Assembly (NCBI GenBank): GCA_963827685.1
Contig: CAWHBU010000002.1
Coordinates: forward strand, 480,001 to 544,000
Length of the DNA: 64,000 nt
Direction of reading: 5' to 3'
Source of the DNA: an uncultured delta proteobacterium
GTDB lineage: Bacteria; Desulfobacterota; BSN033; UBA1163
Positions 4,382-20,889 of this stretch are shown here, in pieces. The translations under genes and the position numbers were made by a program. Numbering within the stretch: the first letter of the stretch is position 1; each line of letters opens with the position of its first letter. Under the pieces are notes generated by a model. That model worked only from the letters and a program-made list of their open reading frames with translations. It was not told the origin of the DNA and did no database searches.

Positions 4382-5284
4382 ATGGAGAAAAAAATGGAAG
4401 AAGTCATTTATCTCGAGAGACCAAATCTTAGTAGACCGTATTTGATTATCGGGTTTGAGGGATGGCCCAATGCAGGAGAAGTCTCCTCTTTTGCCCTTCG
4501 GCATCTGGTCGACAGTTTAGGGGCAAAACAATTCGCCTCCATTCCGACAGAGAATTTTTACCAAATCTCTTCCTTGCGACCGATGGCAGTTATCAAGGAG
4601 GGGAAGTTGATGGAATTGAAGTCCCCGGGGAATCATTTTTACTATGTAAAAGGCTCTCTTTTTAATGACCTCATCCTCTTTTACGGGGTGGAACCTCATC
4701 TTCGATGGGATGTCTTTGCTGACCTTATTCTCGATTTGGCTGAGAGATTTGATGTCATGCGACTCTTTACCATCGGCGGTACGTATGATTACATCCCTCA
4801 CACCTATCCTCCGATGGTCAGTGCTCTGTTCAATCACGAAGAACTGAGAGAAAAGGTGATCCAGGCTGGGCTGGGGTTGACGGAATACTCCGGGCCCATC
4901 AGCATCCACACGTTCATGCTCGAGGCTGCTAGAAAGAGGGGTTTAAAGGCGATCAGCCTCTGGGGCCATGCCCCACAATATCTTCAGACCAGGAATGTAA
5001 AAGTGGTCTGCGCCGTTCTGAAAAAGCTGATTGATTTGACCAAGATAGAGGTTGATCTCTCCGAGATTGAAAAGGCCAGCGAATATTTTGATCAGCAGGT
5101 CAACCATTTGCTGGAGGAGGATCCGAAGCTCCAAGAGGTGATTAGCAAATTAGAAGAACTCTATAAACGATCCGAAAAGATTCCTCAGCCGACAGGAAGG
5201 GAAGAGGGCGTGAAAGAAGATAAGGTGGTTTACATTCAGGCCTTCCTTAAGAAATTGGAGGATGAAGAGAAAAAAGAAGGGTGA
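4382..5284 (+). CDS. PAC2 (proteasome assembly chaperone-like) family protein
   Basis: GFEGWPNAGE, GVEPHLRW, IPHT, YSGP, SLWGHAPQYL. Confidence 0.85.
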   Translation: MEKKMEEVIYLERPNLSRPYLIIGFEGWPNAGEVSSFALRHLVDSLGAKQFASIPTENFYQISSLRPMAVIKEGKLMELKSPGNHFYYVKGSLFNDLILFYGVEPHLRWDVFADLILDLAERFDVMRLFTIGGTYDYIPHTYPPMVSALFNHEELREKVIQAGLGLTEYSGPISIHTFMLEAARKRGLKAISLWGHAPQYLQTRNVKVVCAVLKKLIDLTKIEVDLSEIEKASEYFDQQVNHLLEEDPKLQEVISKLEELYKRSEKIPQPTGREEGVKEDKVVYIQAFLKKLEDEEKKEG

Positions 5285-5342
5285 CTCTTCGTCACTCCTG
5301 CCCCTCTGTCCCTGTTGAGACTGTGCCCGCGATCCTCCTTTT

Positions 5343-5507
5343 TGTCATTGCGAGCGATCCCGCCTTAGCGGGGGAGCGTGCCTGCACGCCGAAGTGCCTG
5401 TCGAAACGCTTTCGTGTAGGTAGGGTTACGGCACGCAGGCGTGGCAATCTCTTCGTTTTCAACTCGTCCTGAGATTGCTTCGGTCGTTTTACTCCCTCGC
5501 AATGACA
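5343..5507. repeat. REP/RPE-like palindromic element TGTCATTGCGAG...CTCGCAATGACA with nested hairpins
   Basis: 12-bp perfect terminal inverted repeat; internal GCAATCTC/GAGATTGC stem; lies between convergent genes. Confidence 0.8.
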
Positions 5508-5527
5508 GGGTGAGGTAATATCAATTT

Positions 5528-5926
5528 CTATTTTGCCTTTCTTGCTGGCGGGGCGGCAAATTCCACGACGGTATAGGCCAATGCCCAGCACTCCTGTTCA
5601 GAATACTGAGTCCATGCGATCATCGAAGAATTGGGAATTCCCTTCGAGATCACTTCAAAGACCTTTTCAATGTTTCCTTTTGCAGTAGGCCATTCTTTCA
5701 AAGGTTTTTGGAAATCGGTTGGCGGAGGCTTGAGGACAGCTCCGGCTGGGCCCTTTCCGTCTCCTTTACTGCCATGACAGGGGAGGCAGGTCTGCTCAAA
5801 AAGTTTCTTACCTTGCTTTAGCAGTTCAGGGGTCTTCTTTGGAGGCCCCGGGTCTTTTGCGAGAGCCGTACCCAGAATGAAAAAAAGAAAAGATCCAGCA
5901 ATCATTAGCCATAATATCTTTCTCAT
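5528..5926 (-). CDS. Periplasmic monoheme cytochrome c
   Basis: Signal peptide, CLPCH heme motif, GDGKGP, distal Met (SSMIAW). Confidence 0.9.
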   Translation of the reverse strand: MRKILWLMIAGSFLFFILGTALAKDPGPPKKTPELLKQGKKLFEQTCLPCHGSKGDGKGPAGAVLKPPPTDFQKPLKEWPTAKGNIEKVFEVISKGIPNSSMIAWTQYSEQECWALAYTVVEFAAPPARKAK

Positions 5927-5986
5927 TTTTGCCTCCTTGGTGATTAGACTTTTCTTAATATGCTTTTTGGGGTAGTGGTGACCCGG

Positions 5987-6070
5987 TCAAACGCGGCGCT
6001 TTATGTCAGCAGGGAGGATACGAAACTCTTTAGCCGCTGAGTCAACGAACTCAACGCTGTACTCAGCCAC
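5987..6070 (-). pseudogene. Truncated RelE/StbE-family toxin (N-terminal 27 aa only)
   Basis: GTG start immediately after the antitoxin stop; hand translation MAEYSVEFVDSAAKEFRILPADIKRRV* resembles RelE N-termini. Confidence 0.7.
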
Positions 6071-6071
6071 T

Positions 6072-6254
6072 TCAGCGCTCCCCTTGCTCCATCTCTGCCT
6101 TCAGCTTACTCCAGGGCACCGTGGCTTCGTTCTTTCGGGACTCAGAGACCAAGACATCGTAGAAGTCCTCCCACAGCTTTCCCCACTCCTCAAGATCAAT
6201 CAGGACCGCTTTCTTTTTGCCAGAATCATCAACCACGAACTGAACTCCTTTCAT
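6072..6254 (-). CDS. Putative type II antitoxin (60 aa)
   Basis: MKGVQFVVDDSGKKKAVLIDLEEW...VPWSKLK, acidic; RBS GAAGGAGG; directly upstream of the RelE-like fragment. Confidence 0.7.
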   Translation of the reverse strand: MKGVQFVVDDSGKKKAVLIDLEEWGKLWEDFYDVLVSESRKNEATVPWSKLKAEMEQGER

Positions 6255-6376
6255 TGAACCCTCCTTCTCGCATGTTGACCTACTGTCGTCTATTATACAA
6301 AGAAGCAGCACAGTGTCTCAAATAAATTATCCACAAGTGAGGAGGATAAAGGACCGGCTAAAGAGGAGAAAATAAA

Positions 6377-6400
6377 AATTTCCCTGTTTGCATAGAAGGC
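6377..6400 (-). repeat. Intergenic spacer repeat, copy A (hairpin part only)
   Basis: aatttccctgtttgcatagaaggc; 18/24 identical to 8629-8652. Confidence 0.55.
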
Positions 6401-6430
6401 GGCAGGGAATTAGCCAAAAGACACGTTATT

Positions 6431-6449
6431 CTGGAGCATCTTGTTGGGT
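6431..6449 (-). other. Partial integron attC-like left arm (R''-L'')
   Basis: Minus strand ACCCAAC-AAGATGCTCCAG, 6 bp after the stop of 6456-7205; right arm absent. Confidence 0.45.
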
Positions 6450-6455
6450 CATCCC

Positions 6456-7205
6456 CTATTCGATCAAATCTCTGTCATCACGTGAGAACTCGACGGGGAC
6501 CGCCTTGAGCCCCAGTCTATCAAGGGCCTCCCTCGTCCCCCTGACGCATGTGTCCGGAGTATGGGGAGCGAGCACCACGGACACAATCAGGTCCGCAAGG
6601 GACACCGGGAGTGAAACATGGTCTGGTATCGGCAGCATCATGTTAGGCCAGTATACGATTCTGAGCTCGTTGTCGAGTCGGAAGTGAAGATCCTTATAGA
6701 AAAAGATTCCCGGCGTTCTGGAGTAGTTGATGGGCTGTCCCCCAGCGTGGTCAAAGTATCTTACGAGCGATATGTCCAGGGGCCAGAACATAGGCGCTTT
6801 GTCACACAGATGCTGCAAACGCCTCACTGTGCTTCTTATTGCTACTCCTGGCGGATTCCTTATATAGGCCTTCCACATTAGATCCAGGTCGCAATCGCTG
6901 ACACACCAGCAACTTATGTATGTCCGGTTTCTATCTCGAATCCGTTTCTGTCGTTCTGTTTCAATCACTTTCGGGGCCCCTACAGATTCAAGCCAGGCAC
7001 CCATGTCAAGCAGTTGCACTCTAGAGTAAGTTCCTTCAAATCTGTCTTGCAAACGGTCTGCCCTGCAAAGATAGAGGGTACTCTTCTTAAGAAGCGATTC
7101 AAATTTCCAGTAGTCCATGTATCTCCAGACGGAAGCATCAAGGTTGTGCGGTAGCTTACATGCAGGATTAACTTCCCTCGGTATTTTCAGGTATTCATCG
7201 CCCAT
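6456..7205 (-). CDS. DUF2971-like protein
   Basis: VWRYMD..KF..LL...LY..R.D...D.FEG; YISCW; MWKAY; GVAIRS; K...F..DNELR. Confidence 0.65.
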   Translation of the reverse strand: MGDEYLKIPREVNPACKLPHNLDASVWRYMDYWKFESLLKKSTLYLCRADRLQDRFEGTYSRVQLLDMGAWLESVGAPKVIETERQKRIRDRNRTYISCWCVSDCDLDLMWKAYIRNPPGVAIRSTVRRLQHLCDKAPMFWPLDISLVRYFDHAGGQPINYSRTPGIFFYKDLHFRLDNELRIVYWPNMMLPIPDHVSLPVSLADLIVSVVLAPHTPDTCVRGTREALDRLGLKAVPVEFSRDDRDLIE

Positions 7206-7249
7206 TTAAGTCCAACCCGTCATTGCATTTTTTTATTTCCGCAACAATT

Positions 7250-7318
7250 TTATGTCTGGTCACAGGAAGTTGTCAATTGCGAGGGTGAATAAGAATATCG
7301 TCTTTTTACGCAGAAGGC
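7250..7318 (-). promoter_or_regulatory. Spacer repeat copy B with sigma70-like promoter
   Basis: Minus strand hairpin, then TTGACA-N18-TAAAAT (the -10 extends a few bases below 7250); 23/29 identical to 8592-8620. Confidence 0.65.
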
Positions 7319-7339
7319 GACAGCATTGGCAAAGCTAGA

Positions 7340-8542
7340 TTATTGGTTGAAGGGGAACAGCCATTCGCCCTCTTCGGAGTAGTTGAAGCTTTTATCATAC
7401 CCAAATTCCCTCCAGATGTAGTCAAACATCGGACGAACAGCTTTTGCCACATCGTGCTTAGTTTCTAAATGCGTATCCTTCGGAACATGGTGCAGTAGAG
7501 GGCGGATGTCTTCGCTTTGGGATACTCGTCCAGATATTCGCTCTGTGCGCATGGAGTATCCCCGTATGTTGAGAAGGGCAGTATGGATGAAGAAGGGGCC
7601 TGAAACACCGGATTCCTTAAGAGAGGTCAAATAACGGTGAAAGGTAGTAATGATCTTACATTCGTACGCAATGTTGGGAATGTCGTAGCGGTTCTCCTGC
7701 ATATCGTAGTGGCTCTGCAGCATGGATGAATTGTACGCTTTGACCTGCCCTAGACCTGTAACCTCAGTCACCGCATATGGCACACGGTAATTGGTTTCGC
7801 ATGCAAACGTAAAGTTTGAACGGCCACTGATCTCCGAACTCAAGCTGCCAGAAGAGTAGTATATCGGTTCGAATAGGGTGTTGAAATTTCCGGACAAACT
7901 GCTTAGGTCCAGTTTAATCGAGGGAACTTCGGGAACAATAACAAGAGCACAGATGCCCTTGTCCTCGATTCCCTTGAAGTACTTCTTGCTCTTTAAGGCG
8001 GCATAGTATCCGTCAATTATCTCCTGCACTTCTTCTTTTCTGGTTGACGGGCCACTGCTACGGAAGAATGTTTCAACGTCGGAGCTCTCCATTGCAATCG
8101 TGATTGTGCGAGTGCGCCTGTAGTATCGATTATCATCGTATTTCACTTGGTGAAGGTAGCGATCTGGCTCGATCTTCAAGATGAGAACCTTTAGGCCATT
8201 GCAAAGAGGGACCTCTCTATCGAAAAGATTCTGGACTCGTGGCGAAATGCCGCTGGTTAGGATCTGGAAGATCTGCTGTTTTACGGCGTCGTCAAATTGG
8301 ATGCCAGATATGCTCGTAGGTATGCCGTTGGTTTCAGCGATGCCGAAAAACAAATAACCTCCCTGCGAATTAGCGAGTGCACTGATGTCTTTGCAGAGCT
8401 CCCGCTTTTCTTTCTCCGTATTCATCTTGAGTTCAATTTTGTATTCGATGTGTGCACTTTCTGGTACATGAAGCAAGACAAGCGACTGGAGATGATTTTC
8501 AGCGATCTCGTGAAGGGGAATACCGTCAAGTACTTGTACCAT
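7340..8542 (-). CDS. Schlafen AlbA_2 domain protein with uncharacterised C-terminal domain
   Basis: ESAHIEYK, KDISALANSQGGYLFFGIAE, YYRR. Confidence 0.85.
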   Translation of the reverse strand: MVQVLDGIPLHEIAENHLQSLVLLHVPESAHIEYKIELKMNTEKEKRELCKDISALANSQGGYLFFGIAETNGIPTSISGIQFDDAVKQQIFQILTSGISPRVQNLFDREVPLCNGLKVLILKIEPDRYLHQVKYDDNRYYRRTRTITIAMESSDVETFFRSSGPSTRKEEVQEIIDGYYAALKSKKYFKGIEDKGICALVIVPEVPSIKLDLSSLSGNFNTLFEPIYYSSGSLSSEISGRSNFTFACETNYRVPYAVTEVTGLGQVKAYNSSMLQSHYDMQENRYDIPNIAYECKIITTFHRYLTSLKESGVSGPFFIHTALLNIRGYSMRTERISGRVSQSEDIRPLLHHVPKDTHLETKHDVAKAVRPMFDYIWREFGYDKSFNYSEEGEWLFPFNQ

Positions 8543-8591
8543 CTCAGACTTCCTTTCTCATTGAAAGCCTAACAGTGTATTTTCTTTTCTA

Positions 8592-8652
8592 TTATGCCTA
8601 GTCAGAGGAAATAATCAATTCCTTTATAAATGTCGCCTTTTACACAGAAGGC
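8592..8652 (-). promoter_or_regulatory. Spacer repeat copy C with sigma70-like promoter
   Basis: Minus strand GCCTT-ctgtgtaa-AAGGC hairpin, then TTGATT-N16-CATAAT; GTTAGGC follows at 8567-8573. Confidence 0.6.
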
Positions 8653-8692
8653 AAAGGACTTTGAGGCTTTCACCTGCAAGGGTCAGTTTTCA

Positions 8693-8767
8693 GTGTAACA
8701 GGACGCACGAGGCGTTTGATAGGCTGCACCGCGGGACGCCAAATCGCTCTCCATGCGCTTGCGGGGC
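8693..8767 (-). other. Degenerate integron attC-like site
   Basis: Minus strand AAGCGCATGGAGAGCGATTTGG...TCAAACGCCTCGTGCG-TCCT-GTTACAC; imperfect stem with unpaired bases on the left arm, directly after a stop codon; R'' degenerate. Confidence 0.6.
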
Positions 8768-9589
8768 TCACTTTTGTTCTTCGATCTCGACAATACCTGG
8801 GAAACGTTCGCAGAGGAACTCCAAGTAGGCGGCTGTGTTCTTGGCTTTCTGGATTTCTCGATCAGATATAGATTTCCGATGCTTTCGAAAACTGTCGAGG
8901 ACAATCTGGTACAGGACACCACGCCATCTTCGTGACGATGTTCCTTTGACTGCAAGAAAGTTCAGAGTCCTCAATGGTTCATTCACTTTCTCACGGGGCA
9001 CCTGGTACCGCAGTAAGGAGACATCCAAGAGGAGCCGCACCGTCTGATCACTGGCAGAGTGCTCCGTGATTCTCTGCAATTCTTGAAAGGCCTGTTCAGT
9101 CATTACGGAACCTGCAAACTCCAATTCGTTCGCCAGCTTGTAGGCATCCAATATTGCTCTTCCTGCGAAACAGGTTTTCCTCGAAACATAGTTTCCATAC
9201 GTGATGGCGCCCCGTAGTGGTAAGCCCTGCTCAAACATGTATTTGCAGAGGATTTGCGCCGAAAGGATCAAAGCATGCCAACTTCGGATATTGTCGGTTA
9301 GATCCCCTCCTGGCTCGATTGGATTCATCAGTATTATCGTATCTGAAAACGCGGCCCAAGCCACTCTTTCGATATAACGAACAAAGAGAATGGCTTCTTG
9401 GTCATCGGAACCAGCGGTCTCACGAACATACTTGATGACGGTTTCTTCAGCATCGACAATTCTGTCGACAACCAAAGCCGCCGCTTTGACCGAATCATTG
9501 TTCTCAAGAAAGCTTTGGTAACCAAGTATGTCAAACAGTCCTAGTATGCCTGTCTGCACCGTTGACGACGCAGTTTTCATTGTCTGCAT
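8768..9589 (-). CDS. Class III nucleotide cyclase-like protein
   Basis: LFDILGY, AFSDTII, LRGAITYG, GRAILDAY align with adenylate/guanylate cyclase core motifs; start uncertain (9580/9589/9604). Confidence 0.65.
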   Translation of the reverse strand: MQTMKTASSTVQTGILGLFDILGYQSFLENNDSVKAAALVVDRIVDAEETVIKYVRETAGSDDQEAILFVRYIERVAWAAFSDTIILMNPIEPGGDLTDNIRSWHALILSAQILCKYMFEQGLPLRGAITYGNYVSRKTCFAGRAILDAYKLANELEFAGSVMTEQAFQELQRITEHSASDQTVRLLLDVSLLRYQVPREKVNEPLRTLNFLAVKGTSSRRWRGVLYQIVLDSFRKHRKSISDREIQKAKNTAAYLEFLCERFPGIVEIEEQK

Positions 9590-9632
9590 TTTCTGGCGAC
9601 CCAAACATTGTATTTTATAGACACTTTATTTC

Positions 9633-10820
9633 CTATAAATGAACTCCTTCCACCATCTTCAGTACGAAAAACTGTAGCTGGTTGCACAGGAAAGTTCCGA
9701 AGGCCTCAGAATCCTCCACCATATTACTCTTAACAAAATAAATCTTCAGGGTTTGAGGGTTGGTGGTATCGATAATCGCACCCTGATTTTTGTCGGCGAT
9801 GGCACCTATCTTTGACAATAAATCAAGGGCATACCGCCGTTGCTCGCTCGTTGGATTCTCTTGTTTGCGAAGCAGGTTGTTAACCATCATTACCAAAAGG
9901 CATACAAACTCGGAAAATGATTCCGTGTTTTTGGATTCCACACGTTGTTCAAGCAACCAGAGCAAGTTGTCCATACATACGAGCGTTCGCACGGCATCCG
10001 GCCAACGAACACGAGCACCACATTTCTCGCACAGCACATCATCAGATGTGCTCCAGACTTTTCTGTCCCCACATTCGGGGCATTTACGAACCATTGCCAT
10101 GTTTCGGATCTGCTTCTGTTCATCCTTGCGCAGTAGCTGATAGAGATAGTCCATATGCTCACGGTTTTTTGGAATACTCATAAACTTTTGAGCCATGGTT
10201 TCCAAATTCGCGACTACCTCCCGGGGCGAACGTCCTTTTGACACCTCGCGGGCGAGGGTGAGTAGGAGGGGCACGTCCAAATTGGTATTCTTGAGGAAGA
10301 ACGATCGGGCCATTTCATCCAGAGTACTTGGGGACCACTGGCAATGCGGACAAGGCATACTCACATAATTGATCAGCCTTCCGCAATTCTGGCAGCTATA
10401 GATTTGCGTGTATGCCGACGGCGCTGTCCCGTCTTCAAATTTCTTTTCGCTGCTAGGGCGCTCACGCTTTAGTTTTTGAAGTTCCCCTTGTAGAAGATGG
10501 CGTTGCTGTTCATCAATTTGAAATTCGCCACTGTTCAACAGCCGTTCCAGAATAACAATAGCGCGGTTTGTAATTACTGCCTTCTTGTAGAAATAGGCCA
10601 ACAGTAAATGTGCTTGAAGTGAGTTGGGATTCCGGTTGACATTAGCCTCTACTGCCCCCTCTGTTTCGACTAGCACCTGACGTGCCTCGTCCAGCCTCCC
10701 CAATTTCTGGAGGGATGATGCCTTTTCGAGCCGCTCGCTAACCTGTTTGAAAAGCATTTCTTCGTACAATAAGTCGGATAGGTTTTGCTGTTTCTTCTTT
10801 CCAAATAGACTAAAGACCAT
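9633..10820 (-). CDS. Hypothetical protein with TPR-like N-terminus and two zinc ribbons
   Basis: LGRLDEA/NPNSLQAHLLLA TPR-like segments; CQNC..CPHC and CPEC..CEKC. Confidence 0.65.
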   Translation of the reverse strand: MVFSLFGKKKQQNLSDLLYEEMLFKQVSERLEKASSLQKLGRLDEARQVLVETEGAVEANVNRNPNSLQAHLLLAYFYKKAVITNRAIVILERLLNSGEFQIDEQQRHLLQGELQKLKRERPSSEKKFEDGTAPSAYTQIYSCQNCGRLINYVSMPCPHCQWSPSTLDEMARSFFLKNTNLDVPLLLTLAREVSKGRSPREVVANLETMAQKFMSIPKNREHMDYLYQLLRKDEQKQIRNMAMVRKCPECGDRKVWSTSDDVLCEKCGARVRWPDAVRTLVCMDNLLWLLEQRVESKNTESFSEFVCLLVMMVNNLLRKQENPTSEQRRYALDLLSKIGAIADKNQGAIIDTTNPQTLKIYFVKSNMVEDSEAFGTFLCNQLQFFVLKMVEGVHL

Positions 10821-10844
10821 GATTCCTCCTTGGCTGGTTGATAT

Positions 10845-11720
10845 TTATCGAATATGTCTCAACAGTTCCTCATAGTTCTTGAGGCGATATTCAGTCAGTG
10901 GGTGAATACACTCTAGACAGAAACGCCCGAATGATAACGATCGATCCCTTAGAATGGTCTTTGCATTCTCGAAATACGAGCCAGTCACGATTTCTTCGAC
11001 TGGATCGATTAGGCCAAACCGAAAAGGGAGGACGCCTGTGTTCAACATAATTGCGATCATCCCCAATGAGTAAATATCGGCTTGCGGTGAAAGCGACCAC
11101 GATCCAGAAAATCGTTCAGGAGCCATGAAGATCAGGGTTCCAGCAGCGTAGGACGTGATCATCTCTTCCCGATTCACAAGCCCTTTACGGGCCTTGGTGT
11201 TTGCAAGCATTTGGTCGCCAGCCAATCGCGAAATGCCCCAGTCCGCGATCTGAACCTTCAAAGGTTTTTTAGATAGAATCAGCACATTTGATGGTTTCAA
11301 GTCTAGATGGAGAAGCGTCCAATGGCGATAAGCATAATCCAATCCGCTGATCAATTGGCGAAGAGTGGACAGTACCTCTTTTTCGCTCAAAGACCCGTGT
11401 TCCTTCAATAGGTCATGTAGACTTCCTTCAAGCATGGGCATGATCGCTGCAAGATGGAAGTCAAGTCGCCCAATCTTGAGCAGAGGCAGAATAGCGGGAT
11501 GGTCGAGGGTTACCCAGTGGTTCAGCTCCTGTTCGACAATTCGTTCGTCGTTTGCGAGGTCGAATGTTTTCACTGCAAGACCGGAGCGATAAATCCAGTC
11601 AAATCCCTCTACAGGATCCTTTTTGAGTAGCCAGACTCGACCCATACCGCCGTCTTTAGCGGAAATTACCTGGTAATAGTGACCATCAAGTAGCACTCGC
11701 TTCGTATGTGTGGTTTCCAA
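10845..11720 (-). CDS. Hanks-type Ser/Thr protein kinase (catalytic domain only)
   Basis: GGMGRVW, AVK, HLDLKPSNVL, IADWG, GT..FMAPE, DIYSLG. Confidence 0.92.
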   Translation of the reverse strand: METTHTKRVLLDGHYYQVISAKDGGMGRVWLLKKDPVEGFDWIYRSGLAVKTFDLANDERIVEQELNHWVTLDHPAILPLLKIGRLDFHLAAIMPMLEGSLHDLLKEHGSLSEKEVLSTLRQLISGLDYAYRHWTLLHLDLKPSNVLILSKKPLKVQIADWGISRLAGDQMLANTKARKGLVNREEMITSYAAGTLIFMAPERFSGSWSLSPQADIYSLGMIAIMLNTGVLPFRFGLIDPVEEIVTGSYFENAKTILRDRSLSFGRFCLECIHPLTEYRLKNYEELLRHIR

Positions 11721-11757
11721 TTGGGACCTCTCAAGGGAAGCAACAAGGGATTTCTAT

Positions 11758-12252
11758 TTAACGACTGAAAAATTTCTTCCCGAACATCATCCCTTTCGGA
11801 TTAACATCAGCAACAATGGTTATATTAAGAACCATTCTAAAATCTGATGCATTAATATCCCCAAAGTATGTTCGAGTATAAATTACAGCCTCCCTATTCC
11901 TTTCCCAAATTGAATAAATAGATCTAGATTTCTCATCTTTCAACTCTTTCGTAGACATCCCATAATCTTCTATTAAATTACGATATACCTTATTCCAAAG
12001 ACCGCTCTCGTCACGAGATTTGGCAAAAGTAGTAATGCAATCCGTTGCAAGACTGATTTTATAGATTTTATTCTCTGTCACACAAACCATCGTTTTCCAA
12101 TTTGCACCCAAATGTTCAACATCTTTTCCACGATATATTTTCTCATCCTCAAAAGCCTGTTCAAAAGTTCTATAATCGGGAACTGAAATTTCTGTTAGTT
12201 CATTCTCAACTTCCAAAACATTTTGCCCAATCTGATAATTTCCGAATTTCAT
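11758..12252 (-). CDS. Hypothetical protein
   Basis: 164-aa AT-rich ORF co-oriented with neighbours; no recognised motif. Confidence 0.6.
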   Translation of the reverse strand: MKFGNYQIGQNVLEVENELTEISVPDYRTFEQAFEDEKIYRGKDVEHLGANWKTMVCVTENKIYKISLATDCITTFAKSRDESGLWNKVYRNLIEDYGMSTKELKDEKSRSIYSIWERNREAVIYTRTYFGDINASDFRMVLNITIVADVNPKGMMFGKKFFSR

Positions 12253-12283
12253 TTTTTGCCTTCCACCCCCATGAGGTTCTCAT

Positions 12284-12805
12284 TTATGCCGATTTTAACC
12301 GTGATGGATACACCGTCGTCTTTACCCTTTGAACGATCTTTGCTAACTCCAAGAGCCCCATACTCTTTAAGGCATCTGTGTCGTCTAGAGACATCCCTAA
12401 TAGATTTTCAACCATCCTGCTTCGGCTAAGATTTAAAGCTTGAGCTAGGATATCCACCTTCTCAAGAATATCCCGATCAATTGTTATAGCTACTTTAATT
12501 CTGGCTTCCTTTCCGAAGCTCACCGAAAAAACCTCGTCCTCAGTAAACGTAACACTATCATCGCTCTTTAAATCTCCGACTCCCATCGCAGCAGGCTCAA
12601 ACCCCAGGACAGTACCGCTAAATGTACCATCAGCCTTCTTTAAAATATTCTTCACAAGAACAGATCGATCATTGTAGTGCAGGATCACTATATTCCCCTC
12701 CTCTACAGGAAGACCAATTTCTAACCGTTTCCCAGGTACGTAGCCGCTATGACCATAAATAATCCCCATCCCCTTTGGGCGCTTTATAAATTTCCACATT
12801 GTCAT
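12284..12805 (-). CDS. Hypothetical protein with C-terminal ribbon-helix-helix (CopG-like) domain
   Basis: KVAITIDRDILEKVDILAQALNLSRSRMVENLL; RBS GGAGG. Confidence 0.65.
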   Translation of the reverse strand: MTMWKFIKRPKGMGIIYGHSGYVPGKRLEIGLPVEEGNIVILHYNDRSVLVKNILKKADGTFSGTVLGFEPAAMGVGDLKSDDSVTFTEDEVFSVSFGKEARIKVAITIDRDILEKVDILAQALNLSRSRMVENLLGMSLDDTDALKSMGLLELAKIVQRVKTTVYPSRLKSA

Positions 12806-13055
12806 ACCTCCATAAACATACTTTAGATTACATACCTTATTCTACTATGTTCAAATTGAATTGTCAATGAAACCATTTGACTAAGCAAAGAAAATGCAAT
12901 TTGACAAACCCCCGGGCATTTGCCGCCTTGAAATTAAACCCTCCTGTCTTGTAACTAACTGTAAACACAGAGCTTTCTGATCTCTAAGGAGTTTTTAAAT
13001 CTAATGCACCTTGAGGGATTCATCCATAGCAGGTGGTGTCGCATGATCGCTTGAT

Positions 13056-13790
13056 TTATTTCCCTTCGTGGCTAATTTCTTCAAGGTATTTTGAGATTTC
13101 CTCGTGGGTGGGTTTTTTAACATTGGTAACGTAATAATCATGGAATAAAAGGTCACCCATCTTATTACATTCGGTTATACCTTCTTCTACAACCTCTCCG
13201 ACAGCTACGTCCATTGGAACTAATATTCCAATCATTGCATAAGTGGCTTCAAAGCTAATCTCTTCAATCTCAGACCTATATTTATGACTGATTGTTTCAA
13301 ATCCTCTTTTTAGGGTATTCCGATGAGTTTCTGAAAATGGGAGACTATTTTTCGAACTGACAATAAAGTAATATCTGAGCTTGTTGTCCTTCCCTCCCAG
13401 TCCTGTTGATATAAACCCACTTTCCTCCTGCAAAAGAACGCTTTCAAGGAAGGTTCTGCATTCCTTCAGAGATAATAAAGCCCAATCTCTCAAATTCCCT
13501 TCTGAAATCTTTAGATATTTTTCAAGTATTCTACACGACTCTGCAGTTCCAAGATGAGCCAAAAGGATTAATATCCTTTTCTTTAGTTCAATAGGGGTAT
13601 GCTTATCAAATAGTTTATCACTCTCCGTTAAGACTTCTTCATAATCGACATTGTCGAAGTCCATTGTTTCTGAGAAACTAAAATATTCCTGCTGTATGGA
13701 CAAATCGATCGGTTCGTCAATTAGGGCAAAGCTGTCCAAAACATCTTTAGAATTTTTGTGATTATCTTTATTTCTTTTCACGTCATTCAT
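13056..13790 (-). CDS. Hypothetical protein
   Basis: Long ORF; helical segment LILLAHLG..ES...LEKYL; STGLGGK. Confidence 0.65.
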   Translation of the reverse strand: MNDVKRNKDNHKNSKDVLDSFALIDEPIDLSIQQEYFSFSETMDFDNVDYEEVLTESDKLFDKHTPIELKKRILILLAHLGTAESCRILEKYLKISEGNLRDWALLSLKECRTFLESVLLQEESGFISTGLGGKDNKLRYYFIVSSKNSLPFSETHRNTLKRGFETISHKYRSEIEEISFEATYAMIGILVPMDVAVGEVVEEGITECNKMGDLLFHDYYVTNVKKPTHEEISKYLEEISHEGK

Positions 13791-13809
13791 AAGGGAGACC
13801 CACAATTAT

Positions 13810-13950
13810 TAGTCAGTCCATAATCGTATGGACACAGAAGACTAAATCCCTCCTCCCCTCCCTTTACAAAACGGATTCCCCTCTTTGGAAAAGAGGGGTT
13901 AGGGGAGATTTTCTGAAGAATATGTCTGCTCAATTATAGACCTCTTAGTT
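13810..13950. repeat. MITE-like palindromic element
   Basis: Imperfect terminal IR (gtccataat / attatagac); internal CCCCTCTTT-GGAA-AAGAGGGG hairpin. Confidence 0.5.
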
Positions 13951-14198
13951 ACTCGTTCATTGCTGAACTGGTTTCGGAAGCCCTGTACTACGAGTAAAAA
14001 TGTACGCCTTTTGGTAAAAACTGTCAAACATCAAAGAAAGTATATGATTTATCGGATAGGTTAAAGGAGGAGGAAAGTATCGGCATCAGAAAATCCCTCC
14101 TGACCCCCCTTTGCCTACCTGCGGCAGGTAGCTGCCAAAGGAGGGAAGGGGATCAGAAAATCCGCCTCTTGGGGTTTAGAAAGGAGGAGTAGGGTGTC

Positions 14199-14513
14199 CT
14201 ATCCGAGTCTCACCGGTTCTTTTGACAGTTTTTCTTCCCGCTCCTTTGCCTCCTTCTCCGTTTCCCATATGGAGATGACCGGGAAGAGTTTTGAGAAGAG
14301 GACGAAAGCCAGAGTGAACCCTGCACAAAGACCCGCCGTCATAGACTACTCCACCCAAGAAGGAGTGTAAGCACCCCGTGCGTATGGAAGACGGGGCTCG
14401 CTGAAGGAGGGGATGATAATGAGGAACCGCTCGAGCCACATCCCGATAATGATGCAAATGGAGGAAACCGTCAGTCCAGAGATGGTGCGCTTGAAAACCA
14501 ATATGGGAAAGGT
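14199..14513 (-). pseudogene. C-terminal fragment of NrfD/ActC-type membrane anchor with in-frame TAG
   Basis: Hand translation IIIGMWLERFLIIIPS..PRLPY..YTPSWVE*SMTAG...FSKLFPVISIWE; TAG at 14346-14348; no 5' part. Confidence 0.8.
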
Positions 14514-14622
14514 CAAAATTTATTTGACATTAACAAGAGATTGGATATTTAATAGTCTCATGTGGCAAGCAGTCTGTTGGCATTTGGATGGGGTTTGGTG
14601 GGAGTCCAAAACTCTAAGAAGA

Positions 14623-14684
14623 AAAGCCCTTGTAGTATTAGGCCTGCCTTCGGTAGGCGGAGAGATTCAGACTACAAGGGCTTT
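14623..14684. other. Strong intergenic hairpin
   Basis: AAAGCCCTTGTAGT / ACTACAAGGGCTTT perfect 14-bp stem with internal GCCTGCC-TTCG-GTAGGC hairpin. Confidence 0.7.
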
Positions 14685-14964
14685 CTTATTCTTTACTTAA
14701 AGTTAAAGTATATTATTAGTATTAATATCACATTCATTTGATATTATTTGCTAATAAATATTTCGACATCAAACCAAAATTGAGGACAAAGAGGAAGAAG
14801 AAAGAGAGGGCCGCGCCGCTTAATTCTCAGGCAGAGGTAAGTGGTATGGTATTTACATTTGGTGAGATCATTATCAAGGACTTCCTGTAGGGAGCACTTC
14901 CAAAGATTCCTAAAATTGAAATGTTATTAGGAGACTTATCAGAATCATTCACTAATGCTCTCCG

Positions 14965-15324
14965 TTAGTCCACTCCCCCCCTCTTTGGTGAATGGATAGG
15001 CTCCCTTTTGCTTCCGACCTTGTACCAATAACGACCTGTATTCTGTTCTCGAATTTTGTACTTACCTTTAATCGAAACAAACTCCCAGGGATGCTGAAGA
15101 TCATCATAGTATCCAACTGGCTTGGCATCAAAACCCGGCCTCTTTGACCTTTCTTGAAACCATACCAACCCGCAGTAAGTACATCTATATACGGTTTCTC
15201 CTTCTTTTTTGGGGGTCCGAACTCCCGGCGGGAGCCAGTTAGGTTTTTTTCTAATATGATATAATTTGCTTTTGCTCCCCCCAGTGCAGGTAGGTGAAGG
15301 ACAATGTGGTTCATACCGTTTCAT
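14965..15324 (-). CDS. Small basic Cys-containing hypothetical protein (possible zinc binder)
   Basis: CPSPTC...CTYC, Lys/Arg-rich. Confidence 0.5.
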   Translation of the reverse strand: MKRYEPHCPSPTCTGGSKSKLYHIRKKPNWLPPGVRTPKKEGETVYRCTYCGLVWFQERSKRPGFDAKPVGYYDDLQHPWEFVSIKGKYKIREQNTGRYWYKVGSKREPIHSPKRGGVD

Positions 15325-15711
15325 GCAAAGCATTGTTATTTTCTGACAAGAGGCAAATCACACAATAGAGATTTCAATGACTTAGGGAAGCTAATCATTC
15401 CTGCAATTCCTACCACACCCGGAAGAGTAATGGGTATAGATTTTCAAGATGCTTTTCACTCTTTCCCGCCTTATCTTCTCAGAGGCAATAACTGCTATTA
15501 AAGCAGGAATTAGAGAAATACGGTGTCTATATTAATCTCCAGACCATATACCCACTCACTGTGGGTTAGAGACTAATAGAGGATGGTTTTAGTCTCAATC
15601 AGGAGTGTATTAGATTTTGAACAGGGTGTCAATGGTGAAGGGAGGTGATTTCCTATCTGTCAAAGATTGGGTCATTGGTAATACAATATTTTTTAAAGGT
15701 TAATACCTTAT

Positions 15712-16284
15712 CTAAGTTACCTTTGGGATGAGTTTTTTACCCATCTCCCACGCCTGACCCACTTCCGCACCCAATGCGAGATATTTGCGCTCCGGTACGG
15801 AGAGTATGAGCGGAGCAATTTTCCGCAGATCGGGAAGCCCACCCGTAAGGTAGCGCTCGTCGCTGTACGATGCAATGATCTCCCCTATAAAGACTTCATC
15901 GGCCGGAAGGTCTATTGTTTGAACCACCTTACACTCGACATTAAAAGGACATTCCTTGATCATAGGTGCTGTTTTCAGCTTGCCATAGAATGTTTCGAAC
16001 ATCTTGGCCTTGTCGTATTTGTTTCCTGACACGATGCCGCAGTAATCAGTGACGTCGGCCATCGCCGCCGATGGAATGTTAACGCTGAAAGTGCCGTTCT
16101 CTTTGATACCGGGGTTTGTGTAATGTGCCTTGCCGAGCGCAATCATGATGTACGGCGGTTTGACGTTAACCGTGCTGAACCAGGCAACCGTAAGGTAATT
16201 GGGTTTGCCTCCTACGTTGACGCCGACCAACGAACAAGGCATCGGGTAACAGATGGTCTTAGCACTCAATTCAATCTTCTCCAT
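15712..16284 (-). CDS. Flavin reductase-like / flavoredoxin family protein
   Basis: YPMPCSLVG, FSVNIP, DYCGIVSG, APMIKECP, FIGEI. Confidence 0.9.
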   Translation of the reverse strand: MEKIELSAKTICYPMPCSLVGVNVGGKPNYLTVAWFSTVNVKPPYIMIALGKAHYTNPGIKENGTFSVNIPSAAMADVTDYCGIVSGNKYDKAKMFETFYGKLKTAPMIKECPFNVECKVVQTIDLPADEVFIGEIIASYSDERYLTGGLPDLRKIAPLILSVPERKYLALGAEVGQAWEMGKKLIPKVT

Positions 16285-16387
16285 GTTGGGGTCCTCCTTA
16301 AAAGTTATTATAGCACCATTTAGCCATCCCCCGAACCTCTTTTTTATTCAATTCCTGCTGCCATTGTGCTAACATAAATAGCTGAGG

Positions 16388-16538
16388 ATCCAGAATCGAG
16401 GAGTCAGAATTCAGAAGAAGAAGATGACTTACAACGGATTTTCAAGATTTATTTGTCTGGCAAGAGGCACATCAATTTCTGTCTTGACAGTTTATCGATG
16501 TTTCTATTCTGGATTCCGGCTCCTGACTCCTGAATTCT
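16388..16538 (+). pseudogene. Relic of four-helix-bundle (23S rRNA IVP-like) gene between inverted heptamer repeats
   Basis: FQDLFVWQEAHQF/VLTVYR with frameshift; flanks GGAGTCAGAATTCAGAA and TTCCGGCTCCTGACTCCTGAATTCT. Confidence 0.6.
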
Positions 16539-16540
16539 AA

Positions 16541-17350
16541 GTGGAGAAGATTTCATTGAATCTGCAAAGAGCACTGATTCAGATATGGGCCTTTGTGTTT
16601 AAGAATTGGATCATCGCGAAGCGGAATGTCTTCACCGTCTTCGAAATCCTCTTCTGGCCCGTTGTTGGATTTTTTTCCGTTGGGCTTTTGACAAGCTTTC
16701 TGGAGCTGGATTCCAACAAAACCGGATTCATTCTCATCGGTATCATTTCCATGAGTGTGATTCAGGTCTGTCAGATCGATGTGGCCTATGTCCTTCTCTA
16801 CGATCTCTGGTCAAAATCCCTCAAACATACTTTCATCGCCCCCGTCCAGTCTTTTCAATTAATTTTGGGCTCCTGGCTGATTGGTGTCATCCGATCCTTC
16901 TTCGTCTTTCTACTGCTTTCGGTTTTCAGCAGTCTTGCCTTCGGGTTCGACTTTTTAAGACCGGGCATCGGTCCTCTCGTCGTCTTTCTCTTGGGCCTTT
17001 TCCTCACCGCAGCGTCAGTCGGTATGAGCGTCTGTATTTTGGTCCTCCTTTTTGGATATATGGCGGATGTCGCAGCCTGGTCCTTGAGCAGCTTGATGGC
17101 CCTGGTCTGCGGAATATACTATCCTGTATTCATTCTTCCCTTTCCCCTGCCTGAAATAGCCCAGGCCATTCCGCTGACCTACTTTCTAGCATACTTTCGT
17201 TCCTTTTATGGATTTAACGAAGGGTTCAAAAACGTTTTAGGCTGGGGATTTGGTTTAGCGAGCCTTTACGTTGTCGTTGAAGCATTCCTTTTCAAAGCCG
17301 TACTTCAACGTGCCAGAAGGACAGGTGTGCTTATTAAGCTGTCAGAGTAA
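16541..17350 (+). CDS. ABC-2 type transporter permease (no adjacent ATPase)
   Basis: About 6 TM helices; CGIYYPV..LP, IAQAIPLTY. Confidence 0.85.
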   Translation: MEKISLNLQRALIQIWAFVFKNWIIAKRNVFTVFEILFWPVVGFFSVGLLTSFLELDSNKTGFILIGIISMSVIQVCQIDVAYVLLYDLWSKSLKHTFIAPVQSFQLILGSWLIGVIRSFFVFLLLSVFSSLAFGFDFLRPGIGPLVVFLLGLFLTAASVGMSVCILVLLFGYMADVAAWSLSSLMALVCGIYYPVFILPFPLPEIAQAIPLTYFLAYFRSFYGFNEGFKNVLGWGFGLASLYVVVEAFLFKAVLQRARRTGVLIKLSE

Positions 17351-17362
17351 CCCTTGTGATTT

Positions 17363-17455
17363 TGGATTGCGGATTGCGGATTTCGGATTGTTGCCCCGTA
17401 GTTTCGTGTATTCGATAAATTCGCTATGCGCCATGCGCTATGCACTTTGCGTTTT
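17363..17455. repeat. Heptamer tandem-repeat element, second copy
   Basis: gattgcggattgcggatttcggatt ... gctatgcgccatgcgctatgcactttgcg. Confidence 0.75.
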
Positions 17456-18249
17456 CACAGGGCTTCCCACATTCGTTTCAGCTTCTCTTTGCTGATCTTG
17501 AGGTAGTCCCTGTCCTTGGAGAAGACTTCGAGGGTAATGGTTTCATCGTATTTGGCCTCATTGAGTTCTCTCATAATCTTTTCGAAATCAATAATCCCAG
17601 CACCAATTGGCAAATGACTATCATCCTTTCCGAAGTTGTCATTGGCGTGGACGTGGCCGATTCGGTAACCATAAAGGCGGATAAACTCCGAAGATCTATT
17701 CTTCCCACCGCCAAGATTGGCATGGCCAATATCCAAAGTGAGCCGGATTTCCGGAAAGGTTTCGAAAACGGGCTGGAATTCATGAGGTTGGGAGAGAAAG
17801 TGGGCTTGAGGAAACATATTTTCAATGCAGAGGGTGATATTGAGGTTGACGGCCTTCTTCAAGATGGCTTCGAGAGATTCCATGGCGTATCCCTTGGCTT
17901 TATCCAGAAGGAATTTTCCTAAACCGGTGATGAACCCAGGGTGGAGCACGACTTTTTCAATTCCCAATTCTGCCGAAGCCTCCAGAGCTACAAAATTTTC
18001 TTGAAGGGAAGCCCTCCTTAGGCTTTCGTAGAGGTCTGAGGTCCAGACAAAGGTAGGGAGATGTGCGGTAATGCCCAGTCCATATTGATGAAGGACCTCC
18101 AGGATCGCCCGTTTTTGTGCCAATATTTTTTGAGGGATAGCTTCGGGAGGATCCATCGTCAGTTCCACATAATCGAAACCCATCTCCCCGATCTCTCCTA
18201 TCTCCCTTAAGAGAGGCTTTATCGGAAAATTCATCGCTCCGAATTTCAT
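17455..18249 (-). CDS. Sugar phosphate isomerase/epimerase (xylose isomerase-like TIM barrel)
   Basis: GFDYVE, VLHPG, IENM, TLDIGHA, HVHANDN.G..DSHLPIG.G. Confidence 0.88.
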   Translation of the reverse strand: MKFGAMNFPIKPLLREIGEIGEMGFDYVELTMDPPEAIPQKILAQKRAILEVLHQYGLGITAHLPTFVWTSDLYESLRRASLQENFVALEASAELGIEKVVLHPGFITGLGKFLLDKAKGYAMESLEAILKKAVNLNITLCIENMFPQAHFLSQPHEFQPVFETFPEIRLTLDIGHANLGGGKNRSSEFIRLYGYRIGHVHANDNFGKDDSHLPIGAGIIDFEKIMRELNEAKYDETITLEVFSKDRDYLKISKEKLKRMWEAL

Positions 18250-18281
18250 TGCACACCTCGTGACTGGTCAGTCCTAAGATC

Positions 18282-18339
18282 GTAGCACCCCCATTTACTG
18301 GGCGCGAGCTGTCTCGCCGGCAATAAATGCCGACGCTAC
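18282..18339. repeat. REP-like palindrome GTAGC...GCTAC
   Basis: gtagcacccccatttactggg ... gccggcaataaatgccgacgctac. Confidence 0.5.
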
Positions 18340-18359
18340 CTCTTTAAACTCCTAACCCC

Positions 18360-19703: not shown

Positions 19704-19784
19704 AGCCTAATTTAGCACATTCATGGTCTTCAAACAATTGGCAAAAATTCGTTGGTGTTCCATTTCTTTTCGGCACAAGAGTTA

Positions 19785-19893
19785 GTGAAGCCCCCCGGCC
19801 ATCCCGTTAGGACGGGACAGGCACGCCGGGGCTTCCCGGGCACGCAGTGGCGAGAGGGATACGAGCATAGGAAATATCGTTTTAATTGTGTCC
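19785..19893 (-). mobile_element. IS200/IS605-like MITE, copy 1 (left end missing)
   Basis: Reverse complement aligns with ~22617-22704; ends in GAAGCCCCGG...CCGGGGGGCTTCAC. Confidence 0.65.
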
Positions 19894-19925
19894 ATAGAAT
19901 TCCTCTCTTTCACGAGGAATTTTCC

Positions 19926-20426
19926 TTAATCAAGCAACACAAAACCATAACGGTTTTGAATATCCCCTTTCGCCTTAAGAACTTCACATGGTAGTCCTAA
20001 ATTCCGTGCTGTCTTATATACATCAATACCAAAGATCGAATCGCAAGGTCTTACTTTATCCGGGGTAGGGCAAGGATTTCCTTGTTTAACGGAACAAGTC
20101 TCGCACAAATTACATGTACGGATGGCAAAAGCGAAGTAGTAACCATTCAGGAAAGCGGTTCTTTCAATCTCAAGAACTGCCTTACTCAATTCCCTGGGAT
20201 CGTGCGAGTGAAGTATTAGAATGTAATTATATCTCTTAACCATTTCAACTCTTTCTTGATAAGTCGTCCCTCTATGGTCGCATCTTATATTTCCGGGACG
20301 GAAATCTTCACATCCCCATCGACATTTCAGAATCGCCCGAATATCGAAGGAGATTTGCTTTGGTGAAATAATTGCTGCGTCAACCATATGGAGTTCTTTT
20401 GCCAATTGAATGTATTTTTCCATCAT
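19926..20426 (-). CDS. DUF2284 family Cys-rich metal-binding protein
   Basis: KCRWGC, CNLCETC, CPTP..RP, GIDVYKTA. Confidence 0.8.
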   Translation of the reverse strand: MMEKYIQLAKELHMVDAAIISPKQISFDIRAILKCRWGCEDFRPGNIRCDHRGTTYQERVEMVKRYNYILILHSHDPRELSKAVLEIERTAFLNGYYFAFAIRTCNLCETCSVKQGNPCPTPDKVRPCDSIFGIDVYKTARNLGLPCEVLKAKGDIQNRYGFVLLD

Positions 20427-20727
20427 TTTTTCCTTCTTATGCTTTTATATGCTTAAGTTATGGACAAACATTCCAAAAATTGAAATAATTTTATTGCCAA
20501 AGCAGACTGAAGTCAATTGAATATATCAGGGGACGGGAATTCCGTAAATCGACGAGATGTCGTTCGTCAAACCGTCGAAACAGGGAATGGGGAGGGCCAA
20601 ATGGGTAGGTGACGGCTGTATTTGAAATTCCCATAGATGCCGCCTATAATAATAAATTAGGCATTGGCAACGATCTTTTGCCTGAAATGAATATTTTAAA
20701 CTTGAATGGGTCATCTTTTTTATGGGT

Positions 20728-20855
20728 GGCCGGAACGTGCCCCGCATGCCCCGTCTTGTAGGCGGGGTCCCTGCCTACCGGCAGGCAGGAAGGGGCACAA
20801 TATAAAATGAAATTACCCTGCCGGGAAGCCCCGTCCTGTGGGCGAGGAGCTTCAC
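20728..20855 (+). mobile_element. IS200/IS605-like MITE, copy 2
   Basis: GGCCGGAACGTGCCCCGC...GGGGCACAAT...CCGGGAAGCCCCGTCCTGTGGGCGAGGAGCTTCAC. Confidence 0.65.
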
Positions 20856-20889
20856 TCCACCGGATTATATTCAAAAACAGGAGGAAGGA

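Follow-up and report, generated by a model that had tools for sequence, protein, structure and literature searches.

A Lineage-Specific Hairpin and Promoter Repeat Between Accessory Genes of Uncultured Thermodesulfobacteriota

Introduction

In a stretch of 64,000 nucleotides from the genome of an uncultured delta proteobacterium (G000:C2:480001-544000, hereafter the window; positions are those of the window unless a contig is named), the consecutive minus-strand genes 6456-7205, 7340-8542, and 8768-9604 have one common element in their spacers, which raises the question of what this element is and what it does for the genes around it. The original prediction took the locus for an integrase-less integron cassette array, in which stacked units of hairpin, promoter, and attI-like site had each captured a defense-like gene. 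The present analysis identifies the element as a member of a small repeat family of this lineage. Our favored reading, held with modest confidence, is that each of the three spacers is a diverged copy of a lineage-specific, reused module of terminator or insulator plus promoter, which would give each gene its own transcription unit.

A Common Element in Three Spacers

Alignment of the three spacers with MAFFT reveals a core of ~40 nt in all of them and a further ~35 nt, holding the −35 and −10 sites, in the second and third. R1, a hairpin covariance model built from seven copies in the genome, matches in each spacer. Both the shared element between consecutive genes and the recurrence of a hairpin with a GCCTTCTRYG core at three places, as proposed in the original prediction, are thereby confirmed. 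The parts of the element in the window are the following:

6258..6359, minus strand: promoter half of the full module; block TCTCCTCTTTAGCC..CACTTGTGGATAA, then TTGAGA-18-TATAAT
6360..6408, minus strand: hairpin w1, which opens the full module; R1 41.7 bits; RNA fold −10 kcal/mol, z −2.42
7247..7276, minus strand: promoter-like site TTGACA-18-TAAAAT; 11/12; 19 nt past hairpin w2
7278..7326, minus strand: hairpin w2; R1 52.3 bits; 14 nt past the stop of the Schlafen gene
8571..8583, minus strand: 13-mer AAAATACACTGTT, between promoter-like site and Schlafen start; second copy before the 278-aa gene
8591..8618, minus strand: promoter-like site TTGATT-16-CATAAT; 9/12; 12 nt past hairpin w3; homologous to 7247-7276
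8613..8660, minus strand: hairpin w3; R1 41.1 bits, E 1.8e-8; RNA fold −9.4 kcal/mol, z −1.76

The likeness of these copies exceeds chance in several respects. Positions 7250-7278 and 8592-8620 agree at 23 of 29 nt, as had been noticed before, and none of 200 shuffles of both spacers reaches 23 (maximum 20). The 14-mer GCCTTCTRYGYAAA of the hairpin core has five copies in the 5.2-Mb genome against ~0.3 expected by arithmetic. The 13-mer AAAATACAMTGTT, which the original prediction had likewise reported before the Schlafen and 278-aa genes, occurs twice (8571-8583 and 9604-9616) where 0.23 copies are expected, and at least two copies arose in 0 of 100 shuffles.

Two types of module are present in the window, namely a short one, composed of the hairpin and a TTGAC-type promoter, which precedes the Schlafen and the PDC-S31-like genes, and a full one of ~150 nt, which precedes the small RelB-like gene. 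The promoter-like site of the full module (6321-6292) scores 11/12, and the module aligns with full modules of other genera. Its promoter half, in the first spacer (IG1), is 88% identical to C2:12157-12205 over 50 nt, with further matches at C2:13334-13356 and C1:32154-32177. Promoter-like sites (11/12, 9/12, and 11/12; predictions only) stand directly before each of the three genes, and the top sites of 5900-9700 are without exception on the gene strand and right behind hairpins. The earlier view of homologous hairpin and promoter units as spacers is therefore upheld and, with each unit before its own gene, the genes look independently expressed, as judged from predicted promoters.

In five copies, namely w3 (window 8660-8700) and those of loci L012, L026, L036, and L042, the hairpin is preceded at 10-30 nt by a further conserved block (YTGYAGGTGAAAGCC.TCAAAGT), another mosaic piece, for which Rfam has no match.

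Anatomy of the Repeat Family

Across 50 distinct copies the consensus, in the minus-strand reading of the window, is TGTCGCCTT-CTRYGTAAA-AAGGCGACA followed by a T-rich tract. The hairpin thus consists of a 9-bp stem (TGTCGCCTT/AAGGCGACA) and a 9-nt loop (CT-R-Y-GTAAA), near-invariant save for two central positions, and its T-rich tail holds at least six T in the 10 nt past the stem in 43 of the 50 copies. Stem cells are paired in 92.6% of cases, and well-preserved copies fold as RNA at −11 to −16.6 kcal/mol (z −3.5 to −5.4). Transitions on the hairpin strand that preserve pairing through G-U outnumber pairing-breaking ones by 25:12, a column count over related sequences that serves as a hint only. 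Two of the window copies show particular departures: the pairing register of w1 is shifted (CCCTG/CAGGG), with a T-tract behind, and w3, located 108 nt past the stop of the 278-aa gene, has a stem with one G-T pair, an 8-nt loop, and a short T/A-rich tail.

About half of the copies extend into a conserved block of ~110 nt which ends in TTGCGA-N18-(TG)TATAAT and then GCGACAG. The −35 site of this full module reads TTGAGA in the window as opposed to TTGCGA in the family consensus, and the −35 and −10 sites are kept across genera. The combination of hairpin and short TTGAC-type arrangement has a similar layout before a DUF6811 gene in three other genomes. Coding readings of the element, either on the opposite strand (RBS-ATG-MSPFYAEGD, where RBS denotes a ribosome-binding site) or in a frame of the hairpin strand (MKEY...), were rejected, since several copies no longer have the start codon (ATA), the frame is shifted by indels, and one copy reaches a stop after 10 codons.

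Distribution

A search of the genome with R1 returned the same seven copies and no other below E 0.1 among the 150 of 1446 first-look candidates that were scored. These copies occupy three loci: three lie in the window, three on contig C1 at ~32.2, 32.8, and 34.6 kb, where they surround 523-aa and 127-aa genes of no family, and one on contig C2 at ~12.2 kb, with fdhD on one side and a DUF1737 gene on the other. The recurrence of the spacer, which the original prediction had suggested looking for, is thus real as far as copies before varied genes are concerned; no tyrosine recombinase matched by the integron-integrase model is consistently adjacent to them. Further copies of the spacer exist and gene order is not identical in relatives, so a simple local duplication of a promoter was rejected.

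Among 60 relatives, R1 detects 1-7 copies in 17 of the 36 other genomes of the family, which are metagenome-assembled genomes (MAGs) of Thermodesulfobacteriota, and it is positive in one of eight genomes of the sister family and in none of 16 genomes searched from 12 further families. A scan for the exact pattern in 185,579 species genomes gave 41 stretches. Those which pass the model belong almost entirely to MAGs designated as delta proteobacterium, Thermodesulfobacteriota, Syntrophaceae, or Syntrophobacteraceae, together with a few MAGs from the same studies that carry other labels. Stretches from Chitinophagaceae, Elusimicrobium, Novacetimonas, Acetobacter, and Polyangia, as well as from Saprospiraceae, Bacteroidota, Aerophobetes, and a Gammaproteobacteria MAG, fail the model at 1e-4 and were treated as chance matches. 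On IMG/VR viral contigs, none of 28 loose pattern matches passes the model at E 0.01. Rfam 15 gives nothing relevant in window 5000-15000 (E up to 1) or at the hairpins of seven related loci (E up to 0.01).

Three of the related loci carry other features near the hairpin. A group II intron in L042 ends ~70 nt before the hairpin and does not belong to it. At L032:4810-4850 (G015:C7) the sequence upstream of the hairpin ends in ...GGTTGCGGATTGAAAT, which resembles the end of a CRISPR repeat, and the hairpin may there follow a CRISPR array. A c-di-GMP-I-GGC riboswitch scoring 69 bits, above the gathering score, is located at L036:739-813 on the minus strand (G009:C117), ~3 kb from a hairpin copy.

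Neighboring Genes and Islands

Neighboring open reading frames (ORFs) were defined by rough longest-ORF gene calls. Of the 38 copies which have an upstream ORF, 26 follow one that runs in their own direction and stops short of the hairpin, and all three hairpins of the window trail a co-oriented gene, 14-108 nt past its stop; the downstream ORF is co-oriented in 26 of 39 copies. The 70 ORFs beside 40 copies form only four homology groups, the remainder being singletons. Where a downstream gene does recur, the element is kept with it, as seen for a gene of 91-98 aa (5/5 loci in four genomes), DUF6811 (3/3), and DUF1737 (2/2). Hairpin and promoter thus remain before recurring genes, and the recurring unit is that of hairpin, promoter, and gene.

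The islands surrounding the copies hold toxin-antitoxin genes (BrnT, Phd/PIN, ParE, MazE, and Gp49-type), transposases of six insertion sequence (IS) families (IS3, IS4-type DDE, IS66, IS110, IS200, and ISL3), phage-integrase genes and fragments, and reverse transcriptases. PADLOC matches were obtained for 5 of 46 otherwise unassigned neighbors, a fraction which has no genome-wide baseline: TIR, PifA (4e-49), a PycC-like cyclase, an SNc nuclease, and PDC-S31. Another genus has a further Schlafen gene behind a hairpin copy, and in one genome an IS200 element is inserted within a full module.

One of these surroundings can be compared between species. The fdhD protein (G000:C2:12446-13300; L146-L149) is 97-99% identical among five species, far above the 77-83% identity of their PAC2 orthologues, so the module-bearing fdhD stretch looks recently shared. 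This suggests a recent transfer of the stretch, which carries a full module.

In the window, the island begins where conservation ends. Past the PAC2 and cytochrome c genes, all eight same-genus genomes carry different genes, and for the window genes in 6072-24000 no homologue was found at that place in any of the eight; the gene content, for which the original prediction had called for such a comparison, is unique to this genome among those compared. Synteny within the genus stops right after the cytochrome c gene (~5950) and partly resumes ~484 kb away in inverted orientation (G000:C2:957621-970138), which places the island at a rearrangement breakpoint. The break at ~5950 reflects a large inversion or, alternatively, an assembly join at the island edge.

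Genes of the Window

Positions 1 to ~5930 are occupied by housekeeping genes (M48 peptidase, rsmB, rpe, DUF3786, PAC2, and a c-type cytochrome). A series of minus-strand genes follows at 6072-13805, starting with a small RelB-like ORF. The spacers between the first three minus-strand genes measure 134-225 nt. The six genes up to 13805 are spaced by 24-37 nt, with the exception of a gap of 250 nt (12806-13055) before the final 249-aa gene. The genes next to the copies are:

6072..6311, minus strand: small RelB-like gene behind the full module; listed ORF of 79 aa, GTG 6311
6456..7205, minus strand: 249-aa gene; PADLOC candidate-defense family PDC-S31 (PDLC04993, 8.8e-14)
7340..8542, minus strand: 400-aa gene with a Schlafen/AlbA_2 domain (PF04326, 6.4e-18)
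8768..9604, minus strand: 278-aa gene of no known family, which closes the tightly packed minus-strand set

The RelB-like match of the small gene is weak (PF18506 at 0.0019, below the curated cut-off), and a start at ATG 6256 behind GAAGGAGGG, giving 61 aa, would suit the promoter better than GTG 6311. The 249-aa PDC-S31 gene is without a Pfam or NCBIfam match, and among 54 family genomes its homologues are all remote (33% identity) and come from just two. No close homologue of the Schlafen gene was found in 54 other family genomes, where the best match reaches 33% identity over 143 residues. For the 278-aa gene, the nearest Atlas clusters are labelled "hypothetical protein". The packed set to which it belongs also comprises a 395-aa zinc-ribbon protein, a Ser/Thr kinase with PADLOC matches to PD-T4-6 and MAD6-type, and 164-, 173-, and 249-aa genes, and extends to 13805.

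The description of these genes as defense-like holds for some of them. The labels "DUF2971-like" and "cyclase-like", which had been attached to two of them, find no support in Pfam, NCBIfam, or PADLOC, apart from the PDC-S31 assignment of the 249-aa protein; a match at 0.87 to an Atlas cyclase cluster offers no more than a lead. Farther along the window, ~10 kb past the island, a 925-aa protein (24413-27190, minus strand) matches AAA_21 (AbiEii-type ATPase) and may be of defense type.

A Probable Reusable Terminator and Promoter Module

The analysis shows the repeat family with its anatomy, distribution, varied neighbors, and linkage to the downstream gene; termination, promoter activity, and the mode of spread are what we infer for this element. 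The hairpin and its T-tract, which together have the shape of an intrinsic terminator or insulator, would halt transcription arriving from the upstream gene. The T/A-rich tail would then occupy about −40 to −60 relative to a sigma-70-type promoter, which begins after another 12-70 nt. In the full module, the hairpin is followed by a conserved block with a DnaA-box-like word and by TTGAGA-18-TATAAT. The three window genes would each form a hairpin-promoter-gene unit downstream of the kinase-containing operon, and the module would travel with, or be recruited to, accessory genes of the family's flexible genome via ordinary recombination and transfer. This reading is drawn from the shape of hairpin and T-tract, the co-orientation of most upstream ORFs, the good folds, the excess of G-U-preserving changes, and the promoter-like sites behind the hairpins.

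Several observations weigh against it. The hairpins of the window are weak, at −10 (w1), −4.3 (w2), and −9.4 kcal/mol (w3), and w2, whose stem is weakened by a mismatch, barely folds at all (z +0.16). A simple terminator scan, which admits loops of 3-8 nt and 5 or more T in 8, passes over all three (0 sites vs 3.2 in shuffles). The −35 and −10 motifs of the original prediction are present at 11/12 and 9/12; the total of five promoter-like sites in 5900-9700 is not above the number in shuffles (4.2 ± 2.0). A look through the listed sequencing runs found no transcript data for this organism. Covariation is uninformative, as both sides of the stem change in only two cells and shuffles do equally well. 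The upstream ORF is divergent in 12 of 38 copies, for example at the fdhD locus, and the hairpins of those copies hence terminate no gene. Finally, the loop is conserved like the stem, with columns 12-15 and 20-25 near-invariant, which exceeds the need of a plain terminator and points to sequence-specific recognition. The last observation keeps alive two alternatives, in which the hairpin sequence serves as an operator or as a recombination site.

A Possible Operator

The inverted repeat may instead be a duplex operator for a lineage-specific DNA-binding protein which co-regulates accessory genes, its hairpin potential being incidental. We consider this unlikely, while several features of the module speak for it. 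Besides the conservation of the hairpin loop, the half-site TGTCGC/GCGACA recurs across the −35 site of the full module (GCGACA-N3-TGTCGC) and a second repeat, TGTCGC-N15-GCGACAG, encloses its −10 site; these proximal half-sites are, however, often altered (GCGTC at −35), the 3' half-site is gone in the five copies before the 91-98-aa gene, and short-type modules are without further half-sites. Directly upstream of the −35 site lies a conserved word, TTATCCACA on the other strand, which we take to be DnaA-box-like, yet the distance from the hairpin to the −35 site ranges from 12 to ~70 nt. The presence of 12 of 38 copies in divergent promoter regions would suit an operator; the copies are not accompanied by any candidate regulator gene. 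Retention of the T-tract in 43 of 50 copies and the preference for G-U-compatible changes fit an RNA rather than a duplex site.

A Possible Recombination Site

It is rather improbable that the hairpin is the core site of an unrecognized site-specific recombination system, in which direct copies delimit excisable cassettes of hairpin, promoter, and gene and a recombinase acts in trans. Its 9-bp inverted arms and asymmetric spacer of ~9 nt do resemble the core site of a tyrosine recombinase, arms and spacer are strongly conserved with variation mostly at the two central loop positions, and copies at the same locus are directly oriented. The copies in the window, on the other hand, are just 70-75% alike and partly degenerate, which would make them poor recombining partners. 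In favor of the idea, these hairpins are typical of the family, unlike the genes between them, for which 54 family genomes hold no close relatives. The window holds no recombinase; integrase genes or fragments do occur within ~1 kb at three G027 loci, but the tyrosine recombinases matched elsewhere by the integron-integrase model are not consistently beside copies.

Breakpoints give a similarly divided picture. Between G026 and G019, the homology of the unit with the 91-aa gene begins at the 5' edge of the hairpin, whereas the breakpoint between presence and absence of fdhD lies ~50 nt upstream of the hairpin, and at a different place in G012. A copy in G010 is broken within the loop, but it abuts a 5'-truncated duplicate archease gene, which marks an illegitimate rearrangement with no target site; the "empty site" which this broken hairpin had seemed to offer was rejected for that reason. 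The fusion is found at L040:4490-6365 (G010:C1 ~2,028,500), where a second, 5'-truncated archease with rtcB is joined to the half hairpin, and the complete archease is located at G010:C1:~160,400. No contig joint falls at the hairpins in the sparse, short contigs of four DNA runs (8648-12895 is uncovered in X4). An apparent joint at 6306-7302 (X2, 24-nt side) is best explained by a module copy elsewhere, and another at 5812-14241/14251 (X5, sides of 32 and 22) is too short to trust. A non-integron cassette system built on the hairpin as its recombination site, in which units of hairpin, promoter, and gene are swapped between islands by a recombinase acting in trans, is given a slightly lower place still.

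A Possible Transposable Element

Less probable again is a non-autonomous transposable element, similar to a miniature inverted-repeat transposable element (MITE), REPIN, or Correia element, with the ~150-nt module moved by a transposase in trans and single hairpins as its remnants. One 7-nt inverted word (CTGTCGC...GCGACAG) marks either end of the full module, both of its ends are palindromic units, and the module occurs in unrelated contexts across genera at 85-95% identity. Its copy number is nevertheless low (1-7 per genome), no target-site duplication or clean empty site was seen, and at the fdhD locus, the sole comparison of a filled with an empty site, the breakpoints lie ~50 nt or more outside the module ends. 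Although the genome holds more than 20 IS200-type Y1 transposase genes, none of them lies at a hairpin locus, and the lone Y1 transposase beside a copy belongs to the IS200 element inside the module and is not a REP-associated tyrosine transposase (RAYT) flanked by copies. A RAYT/REP link was rejected on the same grounds: the 25 Y1_Tnp matches belong to multicopy elements of IS200 type at other places than the hairpin loci, and the hairpin copies number just seven. At least 21 of the IS200-type copies in G000 have the same two scores, and they look like an active IS200/IS605 family.

Integron Cassettes, the Earlier Proposal

The reading put forward in the original prediction, a cluster of attC sites lacking an integron-integrase (CALIN) with attI-like sites and a promoter for each cassette, fares worst. 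To its credit stand the same-strand accessory and defense-like genes separated by a repeated, structured element and the evidence that the lineage once had integrons. The GTTRRRY cores at the gene starts are, however, chance occurrences, with 71 in the window compared to 101 ± 10 in shuffles, and thus rarer than expected. The degenerate attC proposed at 8693-8767 folds as DNA like its shuffles on both strands (z +0.23 and +0.12; 114 and 108 of 200 shuffles are as good). True attC sites, one behind each cassette, are imperfect hairpins of 57-141 nt built as R''(RYYYAAC)-L''...L'-R'(GTTRRRY). The repeated hairpin is only 27 nt long (9-bp stem, 9-nt loop) and has no R''/L''/L'/R' boxes, and the order of hairpin, promoter, and gene is the reverse of a promoterless gene-attC cassette.

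Sites of attC type were sought with a heuristic which requires AAC...GTTRR 50-150 nt apart, pairing of AAC with GTT in the minimum-energy DNA fold, one hairpin only, at least 55% of bases paired, and a free energy of at most −12 kcal/mol. It recovers about half of true sites (5 of ~10 attC sites in two class-1 arrays; 2 in a strict first version), has a background of 3-5 per 100 kb in 460 kb sampled from this genome, and returned no match on either strand of 5900-14000. That three or more true attC sites were missed in a row at this sensitivity is unlikely.

The absence of an integrase from the window, on which the original prediction was correct, was confirmed by searching the genome with the integron-integrase model TIGR02249. 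The best match scores 191 bits against a cut-off of 265, covers model positions 197-315, and is located on another contig, C3. It corresponds to a truncated integron integrase, a C-terminal IntI fragment of 141 aa which is 54% identical to IntI1 (G000:C3:782910-783335; L142:1910-2335, minus strand). This fragment sits among fragments of other genes beside the mraZ-rsmH cluster. About 3 kb from it, two attC-like hairpins identified by the heuristic (G000:C3:786077-786135, plus strand, and 786394-786449, minus strand) flank a DUF559-like gene of 85 aa, and together they may be a cassette remnant. For the locus in the window, neither an integron nor an att relationship emerges from the heuristic, the unfolded attC, the GTTRRRY counts, or the shape of the hairpin, and an integron-type array is exceedingly improbable.

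Likeness to Known Systems

The closest parallel to the module is the class of putative mobile promoters, defined as sequences which share 80% identity or more across 50 nt or more and which precede genes without homology to one another (PMC3575422). IG1 and C2:12157-12205 fall within this definition, with 88% identity over 50 nt and unrelated downstream genes (RelB-like and DUF1737). Like the element, putative mobile promoters stand before unrelated genes, both in one genome and between genera, and in neither case is there an Rfam match or an explained movement (Matus-Garcia, Nijveen and van Passel 2012; PMC3575422). The element differs from them in having a conserved hairpin and T-tract before the promoter, in occurring also as a hairpin-only or short form, and in being arrayed between adjacent accessory genes. 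The catalogue of putative mobile promoters predates these MAGs.

Mosaic intergenic repeats are short, lineage-specific, imperfectly palindromic, and intergenic, and some of them carry promoters or terminate transcription. As in the element, palindromic units are combined in them with other conserved blocks. Examples named as such are REP/BIME, ERIC, and Correia elements and REPINs (PMC3575422). In contrast to their tens to hundreds of copies, the element has 1-7, with no linked RAYT or dedicated transposase and no target duplication.

Integron cassettes and CALINs, including defense cassettes (bioRxiv 10.1101/2024.07.02.601719, PMC12614218), share with this locus small accessory and defense genes on the same strand, a repeated structured separator, and variable content. 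Unlike them, the locus has no attC features or nearby intI, and its unit has its own promoter rather than being read from Pc.

Phage "morons" are inserted genes with their own promoter and terminator. Each gene here is similarly an autonomous unit between a promoter and a terminator-like hairpin, but the brackets are homologous copies of one element and lie in chromosomal islands. The element is also, unlike "morons", not found on IMG/VR viral contigs, where 0 of the 28 loose matches pass the model. A literature search on general terms found no description of a hairpin-promoter element of this kind.

Implications

The analysis removes a false integron call, in which a chance-level 7-mer core and a non-folding GC-rich stretch had been mistaken for att sites, and in its place describes a lineage-specific hairpin and promoter repeat in uncultured Thermodesulfobacteriota of sediment and peat. 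The element could serve to mark accessory islands in these MAGs, and it is a candidate portable promoter and terminator for a poorly tractable group. As an island marker it is of moderate interest, which would become higher only if the hairpin proved to be a recombination site; in that event, captured defense genes would arrive already expressed, unlike integron cassettes. The unusually conserved loop leaves room for a protein or recombinase partner. For the family itself, the repeat marks variable, defense-rich islands, where it appears to supply acquired genes with a ready, insulated transcription unit.

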